A stretch of DNA of 13,528 nucleotides from Candidatus Jordarchaeia archaeon (GTDB lineage: Archaea > Asgardarchaeota > Jordiarchaeia > Jordiarchaeales > Jordiarchaeaceae). The DNA lies in contig JAHQXB010000144.1 of NCBI GenBank assembly GCA_029856435.1, positions 1 to 13,528 of the forward strand, read 5' to 3'. The position numbers and the translations under genes are program-made. Numbering within the stretch: position 1 is the first letter of the stretch; every line of letters begins with the position of its first letter. The notes beneath the pieces were generated by a model that had not been told where the DNA came from, ran no database searches, and saw only the letters and a program-made list of their open reading frames with translations. Shown here piece by piece: positions 624-13,059 of this stretch.

Positions 624-1580
624 ATGGGTGGTCACTTCATGGTTGAAGAAGCCGACAGTGAAGAGAAGGCGAAAACACCCTATAGGTGCTCGGAATGCGG
701 AGCCGCAGATATAATCCGTGATGTAACCCGAGGAGAATTAATCTGTAGCCGTTGTGGCCTTGTAATCGATGAGCATATGATTGATCAAGGTCCAGAATGG
801 AGGGCTTTTACCTCGGAAGAACGCTCAAGGCGCAGTCGTGTGGGATCCCCTACCTCATACACCGTCCACGATAAGGGATTAAGCACCATGATTGATTGGC
901 GAAACTGCGACGCCTACGGTAAAAAGTTAACTCCCCGGCGTAGAGCACAAATTTATCGCTTAAGAAAGTGGCAAATTCGAACCCGAGTCCACAGCTCTAT
1001 GGATAGAAACTTGGCTTATGCCATGTCGGAACTCGACAGACTTTCCAGCCAGCTGGGAATCCCCCATGGAGTAAAAGAATCCTCAGCAGTTATTTATCGA
1101 AAAGCCATCGAAAAAAGTCTCATAAGAGGACGCTCCATAGAAGCCATGGTAGCGGCATCCGTTTACGGAGCCTGCCGCATGCGCAAGGTTCCTCGAACCC
1201 TAGATGAAATCGCTAAACAGTCCAGAGTCGGACGTAAAGAATTGGGAAGATGCTACCGTCTAGTTCTCAGAGAACTCGACATCGAAATACCTATCGCCAA
1301 CCCTATAGACTTCGTACCCCGATTCGGCAACGAATTGCACCTCTCAGGCAAGGCTCAAAGAATGGCAGCTCAAATCATCGAAAAAGCAAAAGAAATGGGA
1401 ATAACTGCCGGCAAAGACCCAACTGGACTCGCAGCAGCCTCAATGTACATCGCAGCTATAATGATAGGGGAACGCCGAACACAAAGAGAAATAGCTGAAG
1501 TTGCGCATGTCACCGAAGTCACCGTGAGAAACAGATACAAGGAGTTAATCAAAAAGCTAAAGCTAGAAGTTGAAATCTAA
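624..1580 (+). CDS. tfb: Transcription initiation factor IIB (TFB)
   Basis: Zn ribbon CSECG...CSRCG, B-reader GPEWRAF, two cyclin repeats ([48 protein letters not shown]). SD-like AAGGTG before ATG 624; ATG 639 is an alternative start. Confidence 0.98.
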
Positions 1581-1627
1581 TATAAAAATAAAAAAGGCAG
1601 CGTTATTTAAAAACTTCCATATCTCCC

Positions 1628-1660
1628 TTCTTTTCTTTTCCCATCTTTTTTCCCTTTTAT
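1628..1660 (+). terminator. Oligo-T tract terminator candidate downstream of tfb
   Basis: Several T4-T6 runs in a pyrimidine-rich stretch 50-80 nt after the tfb stop. Confidence 0.45.
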
Positions 1661-1810
1661 TCTCTGTGAGTATACAATTTCCTTCTGCGCCATCCACTTT
1701 AACCATAAAAAACCAATTATGTCCTAGAAAACAGAACATCTATAACCATCATATGGGTTCTGCCTCCACTACTTTTTCGTTTATAACTCGTGATTTTTAC
1801 GAGGTTTAAA

Positions 1811-1918
1811 GGTGATGCAGATTTATTCGGCTCCATCTCCCTAATAAGGCTCCAAATCGTGAAAGAAGCCCTATAAACACCCCTTTTTTGAGGCGAAACC
1901 GAACGATTCTACATCACC
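1811..1918 (+). mobile_element. 108-bp MITE, copy 1
   Basis: Imperfect 20-bp terminal inverted repeats (GGTGATGCAGATTTATTCGG / CCGAACGATTCTACATCACC, 16/20). Identical to the reverse complement of 12760-12867. Flanked by a 9-bp near-duplication AGGTTTAAA (1802-1810) / AAGTTTAAA (1919-1927). Confidence 0.9.
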
Positions 1919-2013
1919 AAGTTTAAAAGACACTAACTTTAAATAAGTATATTGTGTTTTTTAAACGTGGCAAAAACATTTCTAAATATGCAAAAAAGTT
2001 GGAATGGTGGGTA

Positions 2014-2325
2014 ATGGCACAACAAATATGTCCAATATGTGGTTTACCTAAAGACCTCTGTGTCTGTCAAGAAATAGCAAAAGAAGAACAGAGAATAAAA
2101 GTTAGAATAGAAAAAAGGAAGTTCGGGCGTGAGGTAACCATTGTTGAGGGCATCAATAGCAAAGATGTTGATTTGGGCAAGTTGGCCACAAAGTTAAAGA
2201 GTGCTCTGGCGTGTGGTGGTACCTCTAAAGATGATCGCATCGAACTTCAGGGCGACCACAGGTATCGTACTAAGGATCTTTTGGTGGAGTGGGGTTATCC
2301 TGAGAAGAATATCGACGTTTCTTAG
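2014..2325 (+). CDS. sui1: Translation initiation factor SUI1 / aIF1 homolog
   Basis: ICPICGLPKDLCVCQEIAKEEQRI, GREVTIVEG, LKSALACGGT, IELQGDHR. Start moved from the track's 1954 to ATG 2014, which follows an SD-like GGTGGGT. Confidence 0.96.
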   Translation: MAQQICPICGLPKDLCVCQEIAKEEQRIKVRIEKRKFGREVTIVEGINSKDVDLGKLATKLKSALACGGTSKDDRIELQGDHRYRTKDLLVEWGYPEKNIDVS

Positions 2326-2354
2326 CTTCATTCATTTTCTTTCGGCGTGTAGAA

Positions 2355-2576
2355 ATGTTTCAGAGAATTAGAGACTTGCTCAGAAACCTTACTAGACGCT
2401 CCTTCAATAAAAGAGGTATCCTAGTTTGCCCGAGGTGTGGAAGCAAGAAAGTTAGGCAGTGGAATTCTATATCCGGTTTCATCACACCTCCCTACTATTT
2501 CTGTCGGAATTGTCATTACTCCGGATACTTCATTGTCGAAGTAGACAAAGAAGAGGAAAGCGAGGAAAGTTTTTAG
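2355..2576 (+). CDS. Small Zn-ribbon protein of unknown function
   Basis: CPRCGS...CRNCHY two-knuckle Zn ribbon and an acidic C-terminal tail; ATG start 29 nt after the sui1 stop on the same strand. Confidence 0.75.
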   Translation: MFQRIRDLLRNLTRRSFNKRGILVCPRCGSKKVRQWNSISGFITPPYYFCRNCHYSGYFIVEVDKEEESEESF

Positions 2577-2663
2577 AATCAAAATTAGATGTAACACTTC
2601 GGATATAGTTTTTGGATTTATTTAGGCTTTCAGAAAGTTCTGTTTCAACTCTGTAGTACAAGC

Positions 2664-2679
2664 GGGAAATATTTATTAA
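2664..2679 (+). promoter_or_regulatory. BRE/TATA candidate for rpoP
   Basis: GGGAAATA followed by TTTATTAA (2672-2679), about 30-50 nt upstream of the rpoP start codons. Confidence 0.45.
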
Positions 2680-2729
2680 ACTCTAATTGATAGTCCAAAT
2701 CGGCAAACACTATGAGAAGGGATAATAGA

Positions 2730-2873
2730 ATGGTGTACGTGTGCGGCAAATGTAATAGAGAAGTTACTGTGGAGGGTTTAGATCTTCTTGGTGGCATTAA
2801 GTGTCCCCAGTGTGGTTATAGAGTGCTGTACAAAGCTCGGCCGCCGGTTATCAAACGTGTAAAGGCTAGATAA
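2730..2873 (+). CDS. rpoP: DNA-directed RNA polymerase subunit P (Rpo12 / RPB12 homolog), absent from the ORF track
   Basis: Manual translation MVYVCGKCNREVTVEGLDLLGGIKCPQCGYRVLYKARPPVIKRVKAR* (47 aa): YxCxxC...IKCPxCGYRVLYKxRP is the Rpo12 signature. In-frame alternative ATG at 2712. Confidence 0.95.
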   Translation: MVYVCGKCNREVTVEGLDLLGGIKCPQCGYRVLYKARPPVIKRVKAR

Positions 2874-2988
2874 TTTTTAGGATTTTGTGTCTTTTTGGTA
2901 TCTTGGGGAAAGTTATTTTAGGAAATTTAGAATTAAGTTCTAAAATCTAGGTAATTAGAGGTATTTGTTGTCGTGAGTGTTGGTTGTC

Positions 2989-4551
2989 ATGTCAGGTGAG
3001 AGTAAGTCTAAAAAAAGCGTTGCTGAACAGAGATCCGAGAAGAGCTTGTTCGATAGAATTTGGACCTTGGCTTATCATAGAGGTTTTGTTTTTCCCAGCG
3101 CAGAGATTTATGGTGGTATTGCAGGCATCTATGATTTAGGTCCCCTGGGCGCTAAGATGAAGAATAATTTGATACAGGCCTGGCGGGAATTTTTTGTCTT
3201 AAAAGAGGTTAATCCACCAGTATATGAGTTAGACGGTTCCACAATTCTTCCCTATGAGGCTTTAAAGGCCTCTGGACATCTCGATAGCTTTACAGATCCT
3301 ACAGTTAATTGTTTAAAGTGTAAGAAAGTTATGCGTGCAGATCATTTGATTGAGGACAGTTTGGGTTTATATGTGGAGGGAATGACTCCGGAGCAACTTA
3401 CGAGGATAATAAGAGAAAATAGATTGGTTTGTCCTGAGTGTAAAGGTGATTTAAGTGATGTTTCTGTTTTTAATTTAATGTTGGGAGTAAAGGTTGGTCC
3501 GGCGGGTGGGCAGACCGCTTTTTTGAGACCAGAAACTGCTCAAGATATATTCATGGATTTTAAGCGGGTTCAGCAGTCGATGAGGGCGAAGCTTCCTTTT
3601 GGAATTGCTCAAATTGGTAAGTCTTACCGAAATGAGATTTCCCCAAGGCAAGGTTTGATTAGGATTCGTGAGTTTACACAGATGGAGATTGAAATGTTTA
3701 TCCATCCCAAGGAGATCGGGAACCATCCCAGTTTTTATATGGTGAAAGATACTAAAATAAGAATTTTAACGAGGGAACAACAGAAAAGGGGGGAGAAGGA
3801 GCCATTGGAGATGACAGCATCAGAGTTCCTAGAAAGGAATATTCTTCCCAATCCCTATATGGCATATTATCTTGCAAAGGAGACGATTTTTTATCAGAGT
3901 TTGGGTATCCCCTACGAAAAGTTTCATTTCAGACACATGATGCCCGAAGAAACACCCTTCTATTCCGGTGGCAATTTTGATCTGGAGGTTGAGCTGAGCA
4001 TTGGAAGAAAGGAAATCGTCGGTAACGCATATAGAACCAACTACGATTTATCTAACCACATGAAGAAGAGCGGTAAGGATTTGTCCATAAGCATTGACGG
4101 AGAAAAAATTATTCCCGAGGTTGTGGAGCCTTCATTCGGTGTGGAGAGGGCTATTTACTGCATCTTGGAACACTGCTTTCGAGAAGACGATGGAAGGGGG
4201 TGGACATGGTTCCAATTCCCCCCAAAAATCGCTCCAGTAAAGGCTTTGGTACTACCCCTTGTTCGAAAAGAGCCCTTGACGGACATTGCTTTTAAGACTT
4301 ATGAAACCCTTAAGAAAAACGGATTAGAAGTAGAGTATGATGACCGCGGATCTGTAGGTAAAAGATACGCTAGAGGCGATGAAATTGGCATTCCTTACTG
4401 TGTAACTATAGATTATGACACAGTTAAAGCTAATACAGTTACCATAAGGGACAGAGATTCCAGAAAACAGACTGTTGTGAAAAGGGATGATTTAGTTGAA
4501 ATTCTCTTCAAACTGATTTGCGGAAACATAGAATTTAATACTTTATTATAG
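2989..4551 (+). CDS. glyS: Glycine--tRNA ligase, archaeal/eukaryotic alpha2 type
   Basis: SAEIYGG, DLGPLGAKMKNN, LRPETAQ, GKSYRNEISPRQG, REFTQMEIE, VVEPSFGVER; C-terminal anticodon-binding domain (GKRYARGDEIGIPYCVTID); CxxC/CPxC insertion. ATG 2989 preferred over the track's GTG 2977. Confidence 0.97.
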   Translation: MSGESKSKKSVAEQRSEKSLFDRIWTLAYHRGFVFPSAEIYGGIAGIYDLGPLGAKMKNNLIQAWREFFVLKEVNPPVYELDGSTILPYEALKASGHLDSFTDPTVNCLKCKKVMRADHLIEDSLGLYVEGMTPEQLTRIIRENRLVCPECKGDLSDVSVFNLMLGVKVGPAGGQTAFLRPETAQDIFMDFKRVQQSMRAKLPFGIAQIGKSYRNEISPRQGLIRIREFTQMEIEMFIHPKEIGNHPSFYMVKDTKIRILTREQQKRGEKEPLEMTASEFLERNILPNPYMAYYLAKETIFYQSLGIPYEKFHFRHMMPEETPFYSGGNFDLEVELSIGRKEIVGNAYRTNYDLSNHMKKSGKDLSISIDGEKIIPEVVEPSFGVERAIYCILEHCFREDDGRGWTWFQFPPKIAPVKALVLPLVRKEPLTDIAFKTYETLKKNGLEVEYDDRGSVGKRYARGDEIGIPYCVTIDYDTVKANTVTIRDRDSRKQTVVKRDDLVEILFKLICGNIEFNTLL

Positions 4552-4558
4552 AATCTCT

Positions 4559-5887
4559 TTAAAGAGGGTAGATTTCTCCATTTATGGGGGAGTAGGCGGA
4601 AATTTTTTTGAGTTCTTCTATTCGGTCAGCGAACTCTATAGTTTTCCACTCTTCTCCGTGCACACAGTATACTCTTTCAAGTCCCTTAATTTTGGATATG
4701 AATCTGAAAAGTCCAGACTGATCTGCGTGAGCGCTGAATTCAAAAGTCTTAACTTCTGAGAACACTTTGAATGGCTCTTCGTCCGGAGAGAGCTTTATTT
4801 CCCTTTCTCCATCTTGGAGCCTCCGCCCCCTTGTACCAGGAACCTGATAACCTGTTAGACAAATGAGATTTTTGGAGTCCTCCGCTATCTGCTTCAGATA
4901 ACCAACTATTGGACCACCCTCAAGCATTCCTGAAGTGCTTATAATGATGCAAGGTTCATCCAAGTTAACGTTTTTCTTTTGGTATACCTCAACAAAAATA
5001 TCCGACTCTAGAGGACTTTGACGAGTGTATCTTATTTGCCTTTTAATCTGTGAACGCAGATAGTACCAGTACAACCGGTAAATCTCATTTATCTTTTTAA
5101 TCATTCCATCAATATATATAGGCACCCGCGAGAGAACACCACTCCTTACGAAGGCTTCCAGAGACAACATCACCTCTTGAGCCCTCCCCACTGAAAATAC
5201 AGGTATCAACACCCTCCCACCACGATCAAGGGCCTTGTTTATAGCCTCCTTGAATTCTCGCTCAACCCTCTGAAAACTGGGGTGGCGATCATTATGGGCA
5301 GCGTAAGTTGATTCAATTATTAATGTATCAACCTTGCCTACAGAGGTTTCCGCCATATCTTGAGTTCGAGTATTCCGGGTAGATAGATCCCCAGTATATA
5401 GAATAACGCGATCATTAATTTTTAAGCGAACCATCGCTGCCCCTAATATATGACCTGACGAAAGAAGCATAGCCTTAATCCCCCCACGTAGATTCATTTC
5501 CACATTATAGTTAACATCATATGCGTGGCTTCGGACAGCCATAACGTCTTGGGAGGTGTAGGGTAACTCCATACCCCCCTCTTTCTGCAATTTTAAAAAA
5601 TCTATATGCAAAAGTTCACCCAAATCTTGAGTTGGCGGTGTAGCAATTTCTTGACATCCATACCTCGAAATTATTGCAGGGAGATAGCCTGAGTGGTCCA
5701 GATGAGCATGAGTAATGAAAACAGTTTTTGGAGGAATAGTTGGCTCTAAAGGGTACTCTTCCTCACTGACTTTGCCCAAATTAATTCCTGTATCCATAAG
5801 AATACACTCATCTCCTTTTCTAATGGAGACGCATGACCGCCCGACTTCCCTAGCTCCTCCAAGAAAAGATAATTCAATCCTTGCCAA
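4559..5887 (-). CDS. Metallo-beta-lactamase beta-CASP ribonuclease, CPSF type without N-terminal KH domains (aCPSF2/aCPSF1b-like)
   Basis: GGAREVGRSC, THAHLDHSG, SGHILGAA, YTGD, IESTY, SGMLEGGP, GYQVPGTRGR, FSAHAD. TTG start with SD GGTGA. Confidence 0.92.
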   Translation of the reverse strand: MARIELSFLGGAREVGRSCVSIRKGDECILMDTGINLGKVSEEEYPLEPTIPPKTVFITHAHLDHSGYLPAIISRYGCQEIATPPTQDLGELLHIDFLKLQKEGGMELPYTSQDVMAVRSHAYDVNYNVEMNLRGGIKAMLLSSGHILGAAMVRLKINDRVILYTGDLSTRNTRTQDMAETSVGKVDTLIIESTYAAHNDRHPSFQRVEREFKEAINKALDRGGRVLIPVFSVGRAQEVMLSLEAFVRSGVLSRVPIYIDGMIKKINEIYRLYWYYLRSQIKRQIRYTRQSPLESDIFVEVYQKKNVNLDEPCIIISTSGMLEGGPIVGYLKQIAEDSKNLICLTGYQVPGTRGRRLQDGEREIKLSPDEEPFKVFSEVKTFEFSAHADQSGLFRFISKIKGLERVYCVHGEEWKTIEFADRIEELKKISAYSPINGEIYPL

Positions 5888-5971
5888 TAATCTATCACCA
5901 GTTAAACCTTAGAATGCCGAACATCTACTCCCTTCAACTTATAATCCTAGCTTTCATGATCTGCTTTTCGG

Positions 5972-6928
5972 TTATCTTGTGATTACTTCACATCCGTCTT
6001 TGAGAACGATTAGGGTATGTTCAGCTTGAGACACCAAACTGCCTTTCTTGTCTGACAACACATTATAGGCGCGAAGTACACCCTTTTCTGTCAACTCCCT
6101 TATGGCAAATTTGAGACCAGCCTTAGAAGTCTTCTTTGCTAACCATCTCTCAGCAAATGGTAGAGTTTTGAAATCTTTTTGAATTAGACCTAAAACTTGA
6201 CGTGAGCCCTTAAATCTTAAAGGCACTCTAATGGGCATCAAACTATAGATATATGCATAAGGCGCCTCAGTTACACTTCCAGAACCTGTAGAGGCAAAAG
6301 TCTCAAGAGCATACACCTCGCCCTCCTCTATCTTAGTACCATGAGGAACAGATATATTTGGGATAATCTTTGAGCTATGAAGAAAATACTGATCAAGTAA
6401 ATGACCAGAAAGATCCTTTATAGGCCTAAAACCGTATCCTTTAATCGTTTCTTCAATCTTCTCTCCTATAAGCTTTGTTTCTACCCCTGGTTTAATCAAT
6501 TCTATAGCAACTTCAAGAGCCCTTTCTGAAGCCTCAATTAACTTATTATGCTCAGGATTAAAACTTACAGTGAACGCTGTATCCGCAATGTATCCATCTA
6601 CATGTGCTCCGAAATCGATTTTTACCACATCTCTCTCACTTATAACCGTTTTATCATCTGGAGGGGATGTGTAATGCGCCGCAACGTTATTTATAGAAAC
6701 ATTGCAGGGAAATGACAAACCCACACCCCTACTTAATAGTTCGCTTTCAATCCTTTCACAGATGTCAATAACAGGGGTACCAGGCTGTACAATTTTCCTT
6801 GCAATTTCACGCACTTCCTTCGCAGTTTTTCCAGCCTTCCGGTATTTTTCAAATTTTTCTTCCTCTTCTTGTTGCTGTTTTTGCTCCTGTTTCTCTGAAG
6901 AATGATTTTTTACATTCTTAGCGCTCAA
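5972..6928 (-). CDS. map: Methionine aminopeptidase type II
   Basis: FPCNVSINNVAAHY, KIDFGAHVDGYIAD, LSGH, YALETF, type II helical insertion with LPFAERW, QAEHT. TTG start with SD AGGAGG. Confidence 0.97.
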   Translation of the reverse strand: MSAKNVKNHSSEKQEQKQQQEEEEKFEKYRKAGKTAKEVREIARKIVQPGTPVIDICERIESELLSRGVGLSFPCNVSINNVAAHYTSPPDDKTVISERDVVKIDFGAHVDGYIADTAFTVSFNPEHNKLIEASERALEVAIELIKPGVETKLIGEKIEETIKGYGFRPIKDLSGHLLDQYFLHSSKIIPNISVPHGTKIEEGEVYALETFASTGSGSVTEAPYAYIYSLMPIRVPLRFKGSRQVLGLIQKDFKTLPFAERWLAKKTSKAGLKFAIRELTEKGVLRAYNVLSDKKGSLVSQAEHTLIVLKDGCEVITR

Positions 6929-7188
6929 AACTTTTCCTCCTGATACTTAGTCTATAATTAACAGAAATTATTAAATCATTCCCTTTTAATTCAACAAGCC
7001 GTATAAATATAAGAACAAAAGGTTAATGAGCGACAAATGCAGTATAATTATAAAATAAATTTTTACATCTACCATATGAGCTTTATCAAACATAGGAGAC
7101 CGAAAAACTGCAATATAGGTTAAATTTATAGCCAATTCAGGGACAAAAATTATTATTGTCCAATAATTAAGTTCTGTAGTGATCAAGA

Positions 7189-7563
7189 TTGTCAAAAATT
7201 GAGGAGATCATGAGTTTAATCAGAGACATGGAAGCAAACACACCCGGAATAGAAGCTAGTGCTGTGGTCAGTATACAGGGATTACCTATAGCCTCCGCGA
7301 TGCCGACGGAAGTGGATGAAAGTGTTGTAGCAGCTATGACTGCCGCTATGCTTAGTGTAGGTGAACGTGCCGCACAAGAACTGGCACGTGGTAACCTACA
7401 GCAAATAACGCTGCAAGGAGATTATGGATACATAATTATCAAGGGGGCGGGTATGAGCGCCATAATCACAGTTCTTGCTAAAAGCGACGCCAATCTCGGA
7501 TTAATAATGATGGTTCTTAAAAAAATTTCAAACAGAATAAGCGAACTATTATCAGAAGAGTAG
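7189..7563 (+). CDS. Roadblock/LC7 (MglB-like) domain protein
   Basis: IEASAVVSIQGLPIAS, VAAMTAAMLSVGERAAQEL.RG.LQQITLQGDYGYII, ANLGLI pattern. TTG start at 7189; ATG 7210 is an alternative. Confidence 0.92.
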   Translation: MSKIEEIMSLIRDMEANTPGIEASAVVSIQGLPIASAMPTEVDESVVAAMTAAMLSVGERAAQELARGNLQQITLQGDYGYIIIKGAGMSAIITVLAKSDANLGLIMMVLKKISNRISELLSEE

Positions 7564-7779
7564 AGCAAAACACTTGAATCCATCTCGCATATTCTGCGAG
7601 GGTTTAGAAAAATGCTATTTAGCGTTTTAGGTTATGTTGTTGCATTTTTTAGCGGCTCCTACAAGATGTTCTCTGAAAGAGAGGCGGTTGACAAGGGCAC
7701 CTCAAGCCCGAGGAGAAGGTGCTAGAATTGATTTTTCACTGGAATAAATTCTTTTTTAAGAAAATTAGGTAGAAATTAG

Positions 7780-7840
7780 AGGCTCAGACCGCCCGAATCG
7801 TTCTTCATCCACAAGTCAGACGGACTCATCTTCATCGCCT
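7780..7840 (-). ncRNA. Box C/D 2'-O-methylation guide sRNA (61 nt)
   Basis: Minus strand reads AGGC-G-ATGAAGA (C, 7835-7829)-TGAGTCCGT-CTGA (D', 7819-7816)-CTTGTGG-ATGAAGA (C', 7808-7802)-ACGATTCGGGCGGT-CTGA (D, 7787-7784)-GCCT. It has all four boxes, a 4-bp terminal stem, typical archaeal length and an upstream TATA box. Confidence 0.88.
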
Positions 7841-7863
7841 ATTATATATTAGCTCCTTTGAGG

Positions 7864-7876
7864 CTATAAATTCTAC
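7864..7876 (-). promoter_or_regulatory. BRE/TATA of the box C/D sRNA
   Basis: Minus strand GTAGAA-TTTATAG; the TATA occupies -30 to -24 relative to the sRNA 5' end at 7840. Confidence 0.65.
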
Positions 7877-7987
7877 GCTTTCAAAAAGAAACCGAAGTAG
7901 TTTCATTCAATTTCACCCAGAAAGGAAGACCGTGGCCCCTTTTCTAATTTAGAACAAAAGGTAACAGGCAGAGTTCGGCGAATCCGC

Positions 7988-8575
7988 TTACCTTGAAAGA
8001 TAGGATTCGACGCATCTCACTATTTCTTTATGAACAACTTCAATGGGTCGATTTGTGTTCATAATTGGGTAATCTTTATCTTTTGCCCTTTCCAAGTAGA
8101 TTCTACGCACTTTTTTTAAAAATTCGACCCTTTCAAACGTGTCTCTCATACCCTTTTTTCTATCTAAAGCTACCTCTGGATCCACATCCAGATAAATTGT
8201 TAAATCTGGTTCAACAATAAATTTGTTAATCTCTTCTATCCAACATGTATCCAGCCCCTCGGCCGTTTGATAAACAATTGAAGATTCAATATAGCGATCC
8301 GAAATAACAATCACGCCCCGCTCAAGGAGAGGTTTAATAACTTTCTCAGTGTGTTCCACCCGATCCGCTGCAAAAAGAAGCGCATGAACCGCCGGTGAAC
8401 CCCAACCATGGAAAAGGTAATCCCGAATAGTCTTACCGATTGGACCTTCAGATGGTTCTTGAGTTACGATAACCTCATAATTTTTACTCTTAAGATAATC
8501 CGCCAATTTATTGGAGTGGGTGGTGGTTCCGGAGCCATCAATGCCTTCTAAAACAATGAATCTTCCCTTTTTCAC
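7988..8575 (-). CDS. tmk: Thymidylate kinase (dTMP kinase family)
   Basis: FIVLEGIDGSGTTT, TQEPS, LLFAADR.EH, VISDRYIESSIVYQ, PDLTIYLDVDPE. GTG start with SD GAGG. The P-loop Lys position is Thr. Confidence 0.9.
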   Translation of the reverse strand: MKKGRFIVLEGIDGSGTTTHSNKLADYLKSKNYEVIVTQEPSEGPIGKTIRDYLFHGWGSPAVHALLFAADRVEHTEKVIKPLLERGVIVISDRYIESSIVYQTAEGLDTCWIEEINKFIVEPDLTIYLDVDPEVALDRKKGMRDTFERVEFLKKVRRIYLERAKDKDYPIMNTNRPIEVVHKEIVRCVESYLSR

Positions 8576-8684
8576 AAGACCGCCTCTTAGGATTACAAAA
8601 CATTAAAATTTCTAAACCATACCATACAAATTAACTTTATTAAACAATCGGAAAACCAAATCCATGTAAAGTGGATGATATGAA

Positions 8685-9467
8685 TTGGCAATACAAGAAG
8701 ACAAGTTCAATATAACTCTAAAAGTAATACATCCCATTGATAAAAACGCCCTAACTAAACCGCTATGCATCCAGGGAATGCCGGGAATAGCCAACGCCGG
8801 AAAAGGCGCCCTAGATTACATATCAAAACAACTCGGTGCAAAAAAGGTAATGGAAATTTTTTTCTCAGATTTCCCTTCACATGTAAAGATAACCCCAGAT
8901 GGATGCCTTGACGCCTCTAAAATCGAATTATTCCATTGTAGAGATAAGTCACTAAAAAGGGACATAATACTATTGACATCAGATAGTCAGCCAACATCAA
9001 ACATAGGCATGAACGTTCTATCAAAATACATCGCCAACACTCTGAAAGACTTGGGCGTAACGATGATTATTTCCTTAGCTGCCAGACCCATAACCTCCAT
9101 AAAAAGAAGCCCAAAAGTGTATGTCACAGCCACCTCACAAAAATTAGTGGAATCATTCAGCCAATTGGAAAATGTTAATGTTCTTACGGAGGGGATTATT
9201 ATAGGTATGAATGGTATAGTTCCCGTCCTATCTAACAGCATTCACAACATAGATGGGGTAATCCTACTCTCCGAGTCTTGCAAAATGCTAAATCACGACA
9301 TTGCAGCATCCTACGCCCTCATAAAAGTTTTAAAGGCAAACCCCGGCTTGGACATTGATTTATCCGCCCTGGAAAGGGAAGCAAAACTCCAGTGGGAAAC
9401 CACCGGAAAAATTACAGATAAGAAGATGAAACATAGAGATGAGAAAAAGCCCGAATACATAAGCTAA
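8685..9467 (+). CDS. PAC2 family (proteasome assembly chaperone, PbaA/PbaB-like) protein
   Basis: IQGMPGIANAGK, IFFSDFPSHV, LLTSDSQP, IISLAA, IIGMNG, G..LLSES, DLS.LE..A and a C-terminal PEYIS tail. TTG start. Confidence 0.85.
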   Translation: MAIQEDKFNITLKVIHPIDKNALTKPLCIQGMPGIANAGKGALDYISKQLGAKKVMEIFFSDFPSHVKITPDGCLDASKIELFHCRDKSLKRDIILLTSDSQPTSNIGMNVLSKYIANTLKDLGVTMIISLAARPITSIKRSPKVYVTATSQKLVESFSQLENVNVLTEGIIIGMNGIVPVLSNSIHNIDGVILLSESCKMLNHDIAASYALIKVLKANPGLDIDLSALEREAKLQWETTGKITDKKMKHRDEKKPEYIS

Positions 9468-9518
9468 AAACACCATTTACAGCTTAACAAAAATAAAAAG
9501 GGGGGAAAGTACTTAGGT

Positions 9519-10946
9519 CTAGTGTACTTCTTTTAATGACACCAGCAGTACGACAGCTAATGCAGCGCTAAGAACCAAGAATAATGTAGGTCCAAAAAAT
9601 GTGCCAGGCAACTGAATCAAAGGTGGGGCGGTGAAGAAGTAGAAGTAAAGAGGAAACTCCAAAATATAAGCCCAGTAGCTTGGAAGAATCGACAAATAGT
9701 AGAACAACTCAGCAAGAAGATAAGAGCTGGAGCTAGCCTGGAGCATACCAAATATTAAGGGCCAGATGACACTACCTGTGTGACCCAGAGTCAAAATAAT
9801 GCCTAGAGCCAAGCCTGTTATCATCGGCCCGATAGACTTAATCTCAACTATAGATTCAAAGACAAGAGGCTGAACGGAAATCAGGAAGAAGCCGAAGAGC
9901 GCCGCTGCAACAAGCAAAATCTCGCCATGTGTCGTTCCCATTATGTAAAGCATAGGAGTACAGATCAATACCGCAATGAAAAGGAAGAGCTTTCTGCGAC
10001 CAATCTTGTCCGACAATCTAGTTATGACAATAGTACCAATAATACCGAATAAAAGAACAAGTCCCGAAGCCAGACCACCGAAGGATTGCTCCATATTAAC
10101 AAACACAAAAAACAGCTCCGGATTATATAGAGCAACATACAACTCGGCAAATTTCTGGAACAAAGGCACATTAGACCAAGCAGCCCTTTCAACATAGTCG
10201 ACAATACTAAGGTACACTCCAAAACCTACTGCAAAAGCTATGCCTAGCAGCCAGAAGTCCCTTGAACTTGCAATCCTTGATAGCCCTTCTCTTAAGGGTA
10301 CCTGTTTTGTTTCCTCAACTGGTTCAGGAGGAGTGGGCGGTTTATCTCTGGCAATCAGGAAGAATACAACCGTTATAATCACCGTAACAACTGCATATAG
10401 TAACATAGTGTTCTGTAAGCTAGACCGGGCATTATACGCACCGAAAAACGCTATGAGGAGAGGTGTAAGAATGAGCCCGGTCATATTTCCACCATTGCTC
10501 GCTATTAAACCTAAGCCCTGAGCAAACGCACCCTCCCTTCTGGGGAACCAAGTAACTGCTAGTTTTGCGAGGCTAACATACATTAACGCAAAAGCCACTC
10601 CCAAGAAAAACTGGAAAATGAGAAGCCAAGTTACATCCGGCGAAAATATTCTAAGCACAGCAACAGCAGTCATAATTATTGCTCCAAGACCAGTAGCGAA
10701 TTTCCAACCTTTTCTATCGACTAAAACGCCCATAGGAAAAGACGCAAAAATCTCCGTGGCAAGAGGCCCTATAACCAGAAGGGTAATAGTCATGTCACTA
10801 ACACCGCTGAGAAAATACGCTTGCCTAACAGTCGAAGAGATCGCACCAAAGCAAATCCAAAGCGGTCCTCCGATGAAAAAAACTAGCATATACGCCAACA
10901 GTGATACCCAGCGATACCGGTATACCTGGTATTTCTCTTTAGTCAT
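9519..10946 (-). CDS. Major facilitator superfamily transporter
   Basis: About 12 hydrophobic segments, motif A twice (GVLVDRKGWK, LSDKIGRRK), N-terminal YQVYRYRW. ATG 10946 preferred over the track's 10964. Confidence 0.92.
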   Translation of the reverse strand: MTKEKYQVYRYRWVSLLAYMLVFFIGGPLWICFGAISSTVRQAYFLSGVSDMTITLLVIGPLATEIFASFPMGVLVDRKGWKFATGLGAIIMTAVAVLRIFSPDVTWLLIFQFFLGVAFALMYVSLAKLAVTWFPRREGAFAQGLGLIASNGGNMTGLILTPLLIAFFGAYNARSSLQNTMLLYAVVTVIITVVFFLIARDKPPTPPEPVEETKQVPLREGLSRIASSRDFWLLGIAFAVGFGVYLSIVDYVERAAWSNVPLFQKFAELYVALYNPELFFVFVNMEQSFGGLASGLVLLFGIIGTIVITRLSDKIGRRKLFLFIAVLICTPMLYIMGTTHGEILLVAAALFGFFLISVQPLVFESIVEIKSIGPMITGLALGIILTLGHTGSVIWPLIFGMLQASSSSYLLAELFYYLSILPSYWAYILEFPLYFYFFTAPPLIQLPGTFFGPTLFLVLSAALAVVLLVSLKEVH

Positions 10947-11525
10947 TTTCATCCCTCTTTTCAAGTTTTATTCTCTTTTTTGAGTTTTTCTCCTTTATTT
11001 TATTTTCTGTTACCAAAATAGCACAGTTTAACTGAGTGTCACCTTTTGGGTGCACATTTGAGTCGCGTCCGGCGTCCCCATATTGAAGCTCATTTTAAGT
11101 TATTCTGTGGGGCAAAAAAGCCGAAAAGGGCACACCAAGGGATGATGAAAGCCGAAAAACAAACAACACGCAGCAGGAGACACCAAATTAATTGCGCCCC
11201 ATCATTTAACGCAATTATGTAAAAAATTGAGGACAGAAGGAGGACTGAGGAACGTAATCCAGATGGTCAAAAATAGACATACCCAGACCTAGAGCCCAAT
11301 AGTGTTAGAAAAATTGGGTTGAGGGAGCGGAGTAGGCTTATCTGAAGGCATATTTGCGCACTTCTAACTCGTTTTTCTCGCCAAAAACAGCCACAGAGCA
11401 CATAGTTTTCCCTCAGTAACAACGGCTAAAAACATCTTTCGAACAGTATTGACTTAGAGCCCCACCACATCATCCACACCCCTCACAGGTTCACCGGAAT
11501 CCTTCCACCCCGCCCACTATTAAGA

Positions 11526-11727
11526 GCAACCGTTCTGACCCAGCGTTAACCTTGCGTAGCTTTGGGTTTTCCTCCCTCAGTTTCACGGCGAGGCTTTCGC
11601 CCAAGGAACGGTTGAAGCAGGCACATCTCCACTGCCTTCGGTGGGAGGATGCCCCCAATTGTGACCCTGCCCTCTTTGGGCCTTTTCGAACTCCCCGCAT
11701 TCCGGGCTGGGCTGGAATCGGCTGCAC
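11526..11727 (-). ncRNA. GC-rich structured RNA candidate (~200 nt), TnpB omega-RNA-like orphan
   Basis: GC-rich island with many helices on the minus strand: CAACCGTTC/GAACGGTTG (11614-11606 with 11535-11527), GGGC-GAAA-GCCT GNRA hairpin, CCTTG/CAAGG, GCAGG/CCTGC, ATTCC/GGAAT. The G.U pairs and GNRA loop favour the minus strand; a TATA box lies upstream. The identity as an omega-RNA is inferred only. Confidence 0.55.
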
Positions 11728-11745
11728 GACATATATGTGTGGTTG

Positions 11746-11753
11746 TTTTTAAG
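11746..11753 (-). promoter_or_regulatory. TATA box candidate for the structured RNA
   Basis: CTTAAAAA on the minus strand, placing a start near 11723-11728, where the GC-rich structured block begins. Confidence 0.5.
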
Positions 11754-11899
11754 GGAGTGATGGGTTTAATGGTTTTTCTTTTAACGTTAACTGTTGGAAA
11801 TCTCAAGTTAACAAACTTTCTAAATAGAAGCAGTTTTAACATCTCATATACAAGTTTTGACTATTTTGTGTCCACTTATTTTAAAACTGTTACAAACGG

Positions 11900-12115
11900 C
11901 TGCTGTGACGGTATGAATCTTTTTTGGGCCTGGTGGGTAGGGGAGGATGTGCATCGGCTGGCCCGCAAAATACATGGCCCGTATGGGTCGATGCTGTGAC
12001 TGGGATTGTACCCTTTGAGTGGCTAAGGCGCTCCACCCCTTGAGCGTATGGATGTGTGCCGCGTGGAGCCGACGCATAAGCAGGAGGTTTCCCTCTATGC
12101 TACGTATGGGAATAG
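11900..12115 (+). ncRNA. Structured non-coding left end of an IS110-family element (bridge RNA/seekRNA-like)
   Basis: GC-rich leader directly upstream of an IS110 DEDD stub, with stems GCATCGGC/GTCGATGC (11951-58 with 11987-94), GCTCCAC/GTGGAGC (12030-36 with 12063-69), and GCATA/TATGC (12074-78 with 12096-100) enclosing GAGG-TTTC-CCTC. Boundaries are approximate. Confidence 0.5.
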
Positions 12116-12208
12116 ATGAACTGTATTATAGGTATTGATGTTCACAAAAAATATTGCTGTGTATGCATGAAGGATATGGAAGGAAATATAAAAAAGGTGA
12201 ATTCTTAA
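12116..12208 (+). pseudogene. IS110-family transposase, N-terminal 30-aa remnant
   Basis: Manual translation MNCIIGIDVHKKYCCVCMKDMEGNIKKVNS*. IGIDVHK is the first catalytic-Asp motif of the DEDD RuvC-like domain; the rest of the gene is absent. Confidence 0.8.
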
Positions 12209-12276
12209 TCCTAAAAAAGTTACGGGGCCAGAACCCCGATCAGCACCAAAGGGAACAGGAAGGCGAAAGCAGTCCT

Positions 12277-12397
12277 TTAGAGCACAGGTAACCTATCAAA
12301 TTGTACACCAGCCTCAATGTCCCACTTCTGAATAGTTCGTGGATGAAGACCCGGAAGTAAAGATGCTTCTTTAAAGTGTGTACAGCTTTTCAGGCAT
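12277..12397 (-). pseudogene. tnpA: IS607-family TnpA (serine recombinase) N-terminal HTH remnant, frameshifted and truncated
   Basis: MPEKLYTL, then after skipping one extra T, KEASLLPGLHPRTIQKWD, matching the MerR-like HTH pattern (LYTxKEAxxxLGxHPxTIQxWD) of IS607 TnpA. Similarity stops at ~12319; in-frame stop at 12277. Confidence 0.7.
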
Positions 12398-12448
12398 ACA
12401 TAAATAATACACTAACGCCTATATAAGCCTGTATATTTTGGAACTGTT
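12398..12448 (-). mobile_element. Probable IS607 left end with tnpA promoter
   Basis: Minus strand AACAGTTCCAAAATATACAGG-CTTATATA (TATA, 12427-12420), 23-30 nt before the tnpA ATG, implying a leaderless transcript. The end position is inferred. Confidence 0.4.
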
Positions 12449-12759
12449 GATTACGGCGGATGCGGAAACAAGAAAATTACGCCGTTTGTGCTTTGTTGCA
12501 TAATTTTACTTTTTATAATATATTTATATAACATTTTAAAAATTTTTCAAATTAACAATGTAAAATTGCAAAAAATTCGTTAAAATGTTAAGAAAATTGA
12601 AAAAAAATAAAACTTTTTCAACAGAGTCCAAATAGGGGTGCTGCCCACATGTGGTGTAGGGGTCTTAATTGAACACATGGTTAAATAACGCCTTTTTTTG
12701 GGAGAAGAAGGCTTCTAAATCATTTTTGGCAAGTTATCAGATGAGGGGGAACTATATTA

Positions 12760-12867
12760 GGTGATGTAGAATCGTTCGGTTTCGCCTCAAAAAAGGGGTG
12801 TTTATAGGGCTTCTTTCACGATTTGGAGCCTTATTAGGGAGATGGAGCCGAATAAATCTGCATCACC
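12760..12867 (-). mobile_element. 108-bp MITE, copy 2 (inverted relative to copy 1)
   Basis: Exact reverse complement of 1811-1918, flanked by a perfect 10-bp target-site duplication AACTATATTA (12750-12759 and 12868-12877). Confidence 0.93.
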
Positions 12868-13059
12868 AACTATATTATGCGGAAAAACATTTAGCTGAAA
12901 TTTTATTGACCTGTACACATGTGGGGTGAAACTTTGCCGCACTTCTGGTTTCCTTCTATTATTTTTTCTTTGTGGACCCACTTTTCTTTTCGTGGATGCG
13001 ATTCTTTAAAAATTTTAGGACAAAAAAGAGGGGAAATGGTTGGTTGCAGCGCCAGAAAC

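Follow-up and report, generated by a model that had tools for sequence, protein, structure and literature searches.

A probable gene-less IS607-family derivative with an omega-RNA-type scaffold in a Jordarchaeia archaeon

Described systems and how the locus compares with them

Stand-alone, mobilized omega-RNAs that work in trans have already been described (Altae-Tran et al., as summarized in PMC10691335), and gene-less PATE-like elements "often encode" omega-RNAs (Meers et al., PMC10055086). For IS607 elements, the published rules are an absence of inverted repeats and of target duplication, a GG core dinucleotide, a TGGG target/TAM and a scaffold that ends in ..UCGG, with 40 bp of left end and 60 bp of right end being enough for excision (10.1101/2023.11.20.567912). 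The omega-RNA of ISDra2 has a scaffold of ~116 nt with a pseudoknot between positions -5..-3 and -103..-105 (PMC10097598). A study of mobile elements in Atabeyarchaeia and Freyarchaeia, in which MITEs are not mentioned, identified none that were integrated into the complete Freyarchaeia genome it covers (PMC11529989); in contrast, several genomes of the host genus considered here contain dozens of short repeats.

We analyzed a stretch of 13,528 nt from a Candidatus Jordarchaeia archaeon (positions 1-13,528 of contig JAHQXB010000144.1, assembly GCA_029856435.1), referred to below as the window. Positions 11530-11841, read on the minus strand, very probably represent one copy of a non-autonomous IS607-family derivative that carries no genes and arose by internal deletion. 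The parts of this copy and its immediate flanks are as follows.

11842-11846, minus strand: 5' flank pentamer at the target/TAM position; TGAGA here, TGGGG in the family consensus
11792-11841, minus strand: left end (LE); intact IS607-type elements have a homologous LE (alignment A8)
11807-11819, minus strand: BRE/TATA-like box inside the LE, 23 nt upstream of the tnpA ATG in intact relatives
11728-11791, minus strand: AT-rich spacer with repeated GTTAAC-like motifs, including non-conserved TATA-like letters (alignment A1)
11635-11727, minus strand: decayed remnant of tnpB C-terminal coding sequence, from DNA alignment with a same-genus copy (L025) and an intact tnpB (L039)
11530-11634, minus strand: omega-RNA-type scaffold up to the right-end boundary, from the match to covariance model R1 and from covariation
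11618-11622 with 11599-11603, minus strand: predicted scaffold helix 1
11606-11611 with 11530-11535, minus strand: scaffold pseudoknot candidate
11588-11593 with 11571-11576, minus strand: predicted scaffold helix 2, with one mismatch
11537-11568, minus strand: predicted scaffold terminal hairpin, with two mismatches
11510-11529, minus strand: putative guide, the unique 3' flank directly past the right end; flanks diverge past the terminal octamer

The repeat to which this copy belongs, which we named family A, shares with stand-alone omega-RNA loci and PATE-like elements the plan of a mobile, protein-less unit that keeps its transposon ends and a guide-RNA scaffold, in which the guide would be the DNA flanking the right end and both TnpB and the transposase would be needed in trans. 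Unlike those elements, it appears to descend from an IS607 serine-recombinase parent rather than a Y1/IS605 one, its host is an Asgard archaeon, and its copies are old, with ~87% mutual identity. The published stand-alone cases co-occur with effector-bearing loci, whereas no compatible effector was found in the assembly that carries family A.

Closer similarities exist with the IStron/IS607 elements of C. botulinum (10.1101/2023.11.20.567912). Both are without inverted repeats and target duplication and have GG at both junctions; both have a G-rich 5' target/TAM (TGGG there, TGGGG in family A) and a scaffold that ends in ..CGG; and in both the omega-RNA region overlaps the tnpB 3' end and the right end. 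Unlike the C. botulinum IStron, family A carries neither genes nor a group I intron, and its right side spans ~200 bp, whereas 60 bp suffice for excision in C. botulinum. The scaffold is also like the ISDra2 omega-RNA (PMC10097598) in its length class (~100-116 nt) and in that guide-proximal bases would pair ~80-100 nt upstream with stems between. There is no detectable sequence similarity between the two, ISDra2 is an IS200/IS605 element with a TTGAT TAM, and the family A pseudoknot is deduced from invariant complementarity alone. Like classical MITEs, family A is short, non-coding and multicopy, and it would likewise have come from an insertion sequence by internal deletion, but MITEs are defined by terminal inverted repeats and target-site duplication, and family A has neither. 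It is not a MITE in the strict sense, nor is it a PATE as defined by Y1 elements. With family A, the known phenomenon of stand-alone omega-RNAs gains an archaeal (Asgard) example of IS607 lineage, and nothing changes in the known working of TnpB systems. Together with its relatives, it also offers a defined TnpB/omega-RNA/TAM set from which a compact editor might be tried: TnpB relatives of 396 aa, a scaffold model of 92 positions and a TAM of the TGGGG type.

Extent, boundaries and insertion sites of family A

The original prediction, made from the letters of the window without database searches, had described the block as a single orphan locus. Instead, a 312-bp repeat has one of its copies at window 11530-11841 (minus strand): a BLAST search of the genome (G000) with the flagged block returned 47 matches at 77-92% identity, and the copy has its own left end at 11841. 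About 45 copies are present in this genome, 24 of them full length (300-327 bp), and the ends of all 24 are sharp in the alignment. Neither terminal inverted repeats nor a target duplication beyond the common GG was found in the 24 copies or at an empty site (see below). GG occurs at both junctions, the element itself terminating in GG, and the 5' flank pentamer is TGGGG-like, with counts of T13, G20, G19, G17 and G16 among 21 copies. The 3' end is the octamer CAGAACGG, with divergence setting in right after it in every copy and T enriched at the first two flank positions. The block end given originally was thus right as to the octamer, which lies at window 11530, while the next two T letters belong to the flank; the guide start that had been placed near 11527 is three bases off, the boundary being 11530/11529. 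Window 11461-11529 is unique flank and lies outside family A. As had been predicted, the block on the minus strand is GC-rich, with a GC fraction of 0.51-0.58 in the flagged block versus ~0.40 in the surrounding intergenic stretch.

We also examined the spacing of the two ends and the coding content of the copies. Paired left and right ends (LE/RE) of family A enclose 299-327 bp; insertions of other short repeats lengthen this to as much as 647 bp. A search of the G000 assembly for a pair more than 647 bp apart, as an autonomous parent would have, found none, and the orphan left ends are truncated or interrupted copies. No gene lies inside any family A copy in G000, all of them being at most 647 bp long; without its own tnpA, family A is therefore non-autonomous. 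Across 21 aligned copies there is no common reading frame. The copies differ by indels of 1, 2 and 4 nt, and which frame stays open longest varies from copy to copy, in line with the earlier statement that the block has no credible ORF.

For one family A copy (C123:5857-6170), the orthologous site is empty in the sister species G003 and G004. There, the flanks of the copy adjoin each other at 89-93% identity, with ~310 bp absent. Read by eye, the empty site ends in GGGGG or AAGG and passes at once into the right flank, and the filled site has GG at both junctions. The empty site thus bears out the right-end boundary seen in the copies. Family A is a discrete, multicopy insertion, precise at GG after a TGGGG-like motif. 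Among species genomes, exact-pattern matches occurred almost only in Jordarchaeia/Freyarchaeota metagenome-assembled genomes (MAGs), with one Sulfolobales MAG and one Methanomethylicota MAG in addition.

A separate observation concerns the sequence of the empty site in G004 (L168:1490-1510), where a G-run followed by TATGTAAAAC resembles the flank/LE junction of family A, a G-run followed by TGTTAAAAC. In this one case, the resemblance fits a recombinase that chooses sites mimicking its own end.

Scaffold structure and relation to intact IS607 elements

Comparative modeling shows that the right part of the copy (~105 nt) has the form of an omega-RNA-type scaffold, with a predicted structure that covaries across relatives. 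Covariance model R1 (92 positions) was built only from tnpB-linked right ends (alignment A5), and it matched the window at 11530-11634 with 50.6 bits and an E-value of 4e-12, covering model positions 1-92 of 92. In the whole of G000, R1 matched 39 places, among which the window copy ranked seventh. The common layout consists of helix 1 with the loop CCGUUC, helix 2 and a variable terminal hairpin, and the helix 1 loop is complementary to the last six scaffold bases, GAACGG. This layout agrees with the published ISDra2 omega-RNA and with the published IS607 rules.

When a five-helix model including the pseudoknot was applied to 21 sequences, 88.9% of cells were paired, compared with 33-52% when the partners were slid, and both sides changed in ten pairs. 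In the model-based alignment A7 (96 distinct sequences), 96.4% of cells were paired versus at most 79% with partners slid, and both sides changed in 8 of 10 pairs; in reading these percentages, the structure is one derived from the same sequences that were later counted, and A7 is an alignment fitted to R1. The covariation score for the 96 sequences was 0.436 against 0.146 in shuffles, with none of 500 shuffles reaching the observed value. Two helices covary across the 96 sequences, and helix 1 of family A has C-G where most intact elements have G-C, i.e., a compensated version. The pseudoknot candidate (11606-11611 with 11530-11535) was paired in 99% of cells with invariant bases, so that here complementarity alone speaks for pairing. 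Covariation among homologs, which the original prediction had proposed as a check, was present across relatives (n = 96) and absent within family A by itself, for which RNAalifold gave almost no covariation and -15 kcal/mol.

The original prediction had further proposed a structured RNA of ~200 nt. The last ~105 nt of it stand as a covariation-backed scaffold; the length of ~200 nt does not, and the folding of the 293-nt stretch was no better than that of shuffles (z -0.46). Rfam gave no gathering-level match in the window, the best E-values under permissive settings being 1.3 or worse and from unrelated families. Elsewhere in the window, at 5917-6000 (minus strand), between the genes for a beta-CASP nuclease and an M24 peptidase, R1 had a weak full-length match (15 bits, E 0.02), which is probably due to chance or a very old relic.

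We then compared family A with elements that still carry genes. Two same-genus genomes have elements with the first ~40 nt and the last ~100 nt of family A and a different interior. In a same-genus copy from G003 (L025), a few initial tnpA codons precede an open TnpB C-terminus that contains the second CxxC and the RuvC-III DRD and ends in the same tail. The intact arrangement, tnpA then tnpB, was found in a genome of another family in the same order (L039), recovered a second time as a 'Candidatus Jordarchaeum sp.' contig (L083). Their tnpA encodes a serine recombinase with a Pfam Resolvase domain, their TnpB is 396 aa long with a Pfam Cas12f1-like TNB domain, and the tnpA of family A's relatives combines Resolvase and MerR domains. 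At the DNA level, the last ~200 nt of tnpB in L039 and L083 align with family A to the final base, and their left end aligns with its first ~50 nt, including the GGGG flank and the BRE/TATA-like box. The GGGG flank is thus also found 5' of the left end in intact relatives. In addition to family A and the Jordarchaeum IS607 element, the LE alignment (A8) includes seven elements from metagenomes.

When metagenomes were scanned with the 396-aa TnpB as query, 80 loci at 56-75% protein identity were returned, plus one identical. Their tnpB-linked right ends comprise 67 distinct sequences, every one of which terminates in the octamer of family A, with divergence beyond it. Because both ends are homologous to those of intact tnpA+tnpB elements, family A would therefore be an internal-deletion derivative of an IS607-family element, and at the level of sequence homology its descent from a tnpB 3' end plus transposon right end, with loss of tnpB, is well supported. 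The deletion would have taken out tnpA and most of tnpB. What remained would be the LE, which includes the former promoter region of tnpA, then ~95 nt of degenerate codons from the tnpB C-terminus, and finally ~105 nt that hold the scaffold and right end. In the window copy, the tnpB remnant (11635-11727) keeps the first CxxC zinc-finger motif and traces of RuvC-III, while the second CxxC is deleted.

These alignments bear on several points raised originally. The decayed TnpB-like readings that had been recognized in the block reflect real homology, as seen from the open frame of L025 and from the DNA alignment to the last base with the 396-aa TnpB genes of L039 and L083. Similarity to tnpB 3' ends, which had been put forward as decisive, was not significant within G000, where the family A sequence was compared by BLASTN and TBLASTX with the 3' ends of 16 tnpB matches, and became apparent in the relatives L025, L039 and L083. 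The idea of a stand-alone omega-RNA kept after tnpB loss holds as to its origin from a tnpB 3' end and right end, and gives way to a mobile multicopy derivative as to the single retained locus. Parentage from a Y1 transposase (IS200/IS605, PATE) was considered and rejected, the relatives carrying a serine recombinase.

Two further features of the relatives were noted in passing. In L083, an in-frame TAA lies between the HTH and the catalytic domain of tnpA (4870-4880, minus strand), the element being otherwise intact. Among the metagenomic IS607 relatives, a ~12-nt motif just inside the left end is inverted in one subgroup (L100, L101, L105, L109, L113, L119, L123 and L137) relative to another (L087, L088, L103 and L104); it may be a TnpA binding motif.

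Present function, alternative readings and surroundings

Following the published IS607/TnpB mechanism, a serine recombinase TnpA acting in trans would move the element via a circular intermediate. A transcript from the LE promoter would run through the scaffold into the flank and yield an omega-RNA whose guide is the adjoining 16-20 nt of flank; once the element had excised, a compatible TnpB, also acting in trans, would cleave the vacated site (TAM plus flank), and recombination would restore the copy. The inherited LE box (11807-11819) is the only promoter-like element with cross-family support, and transcription from it is predicted to start near 11779. The TATA box originally placed at ~11732-11752 has letters that are not conserved among family A copies.

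We next considered whether the window copy is likely to take part in such a cycle today. The mean mutual identity of family A copies is 86.6%, i.e., they differ by ~13%, with one pair at 98.5%. Divergence from the family consensus, mostly transitions, is 6.9% for the left end, compared with 8.1% for the middle and 9.5% for the scaffold. The scaffold is therefore no better conserved than the rest and gives no sign of purifying selection, and individual copies seem to be drifting neutrally. TAM flanks are degraded in many copies, the window copy among them, where TGAGA replaces TGGGG at the TAM position. Its predicted helices also contain three mismatches, one of them in helix 2 and the other two in the terminal hairpin. 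In the G000 assembly, which is 97.8% complete, no TnpB exceeded 36% identity to the parent type.

As for the guide, the 20-mer of the window copy had only a self-match in the genome and no match in viral contigs, so the search for a target that had been suggested originally returned none. When the guides of all copies were compared with G000, the only matches were to the guides themselves or to other repeats that enclose them; guides that are unique flanks are what the homing model expects. Taken together, we consider the window copy most likely to be a fossil that no longer works. That it still yields a TnpB-loaded guide RNA appears unlikely, and its present-day function is doubtful.

The alternative that fares best is that the cassettes are still in use, with a TnpB from elsewhere loading family A transcripts in trans and the ~40 loci serving as a dispersed guide set, either for cassette homing or in some host-level role. 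Stand-alone omega-RNAs do work in trans in other systems (PMC10691335), and the candidate source of TnpB would be a recently active second IS607 type in the same genome. Its right ends, found by R1, lie at five contig ends of G000.

C26:1-123, C30:1-122, C33:1-122, C161:1-123 and C174:21858-21979: right ends of the second IS607 type

These right ends (~120 nt, ending in ..CACAACGG, followed by T and then unique flank) are 100% identical at all five contig ends, and this lineage therefore seems to have been active recently. They score 39 bits with R1, have the same helix 1, pseudoknot and helix 2 layout, and are 88% identical to right ends on C177 and C41. On C177 (11288-13100, locus L019), an IS607 element has an intact serine-recombinase tnpA with Resolvase and MerR HTH domains. 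The five identical copies with their shared layout, the intact tnpA on C177 and the family A pair at 98.5% identity would all suit cassettes that are still in use. On the other side, the interior of the second type, including its tnpB, is absent from the assembly, and the sole assembled copy of that gene, beside the intact tnpA of L019, is broken by several frameshifts. The second-type TnpB is also only ~30% identical to the parent type of family A, and its scaffold ends differently. Furthermore, the family A scaffolds show no extra conservation, and the TAM flanks are degraded in many copies, that of the window among them. We regard continued use as quite improbable.

A narrower proposal, to which we give a still smaller chance, is that the ~40 cassettes are alive by hijacking the TnpB (and TnpA) of this different, currently active IS607 lineage. 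Were it true, they would form a dispersed natural guide library for one distantly related effector. One family of RNA-guided transposons would then be parasitizing another, and such an arrangement could be a step on the way to multi-guide systems.

The remaining two readings deny the locus a mobile or TnpB-related nature, and both fare far worse than a gene-less IS607-family derivative. If the block were the pseudogene remnant of one IS607 copy that decayed in place, neither a mobile unit nor an RNA gene, the decayed tnpB codons in its interior and the other element fragments that fill the surrounding 1.6 kb would be easily understood, but 24 full copies at unrelated sites share its deletion junctions and its two sharp ends, and a precise empty site exists in sister species, which leaves this reading scarcely credible. 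A new structured archaeal ncRNA class unrelated to TnpB, the fallback of the original prediction, accords with the lack of an Rfam match and can nevertheless be dismissed with near certainty, since the block is homologous to tnpB 3' ends at the DNA level and is matched over its full length by the tnpB-only model R1.

The IS607 tnpA stub that had been reported upstream on the same strand is indeed present but belongs to a different element.

12290-12458, minus strand: separate IS607 relic, consisting of a left end and an N-terminal MerR-type HTH tnpA stub (stub ~12290-12400)

The stub is 42% identical by BLASTP (E 7e-5) to the intact IS607 TnpA of C177. The relic begins with start codons like those of the Jordarchaeum element, followed by a stop and a frameshift, and has 93% DNA matches on C49, C87 and C28. 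We considered whether this stub (12290-12400) and the right end at 11530 might bound a single nested element, and rejected that reading, since family A already possesses a complete left end at 11841.

Both elements lie in a cluster of element fragments that occupies window 11021-12870. Within it, a frameshifted IS110-type transposase fragment with an N-terminal IGIDV-type motif (12101-12317, plus strand) has 93% identity to C81:257-475. At least four other families of short repeats surround family A, with members at 11021-11198, 11296-11451, 12490-12600 and 12760-12867, with ~25, ~9 and dozens of copies in G000, the last two having dozens more in G003/G004. Synteny with G001 and G004 ends at window ~11020, where the repeat cluster starts. 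The stretch before it (624-10964) carries housekeeping genes, namely those for TFIIB, a class II aminoacyl-tRNA synthetase, a beta-CASP RNase, an M24 peptidase, a thymidylate kinase, a PAC2-family protein and an MFS transporter.
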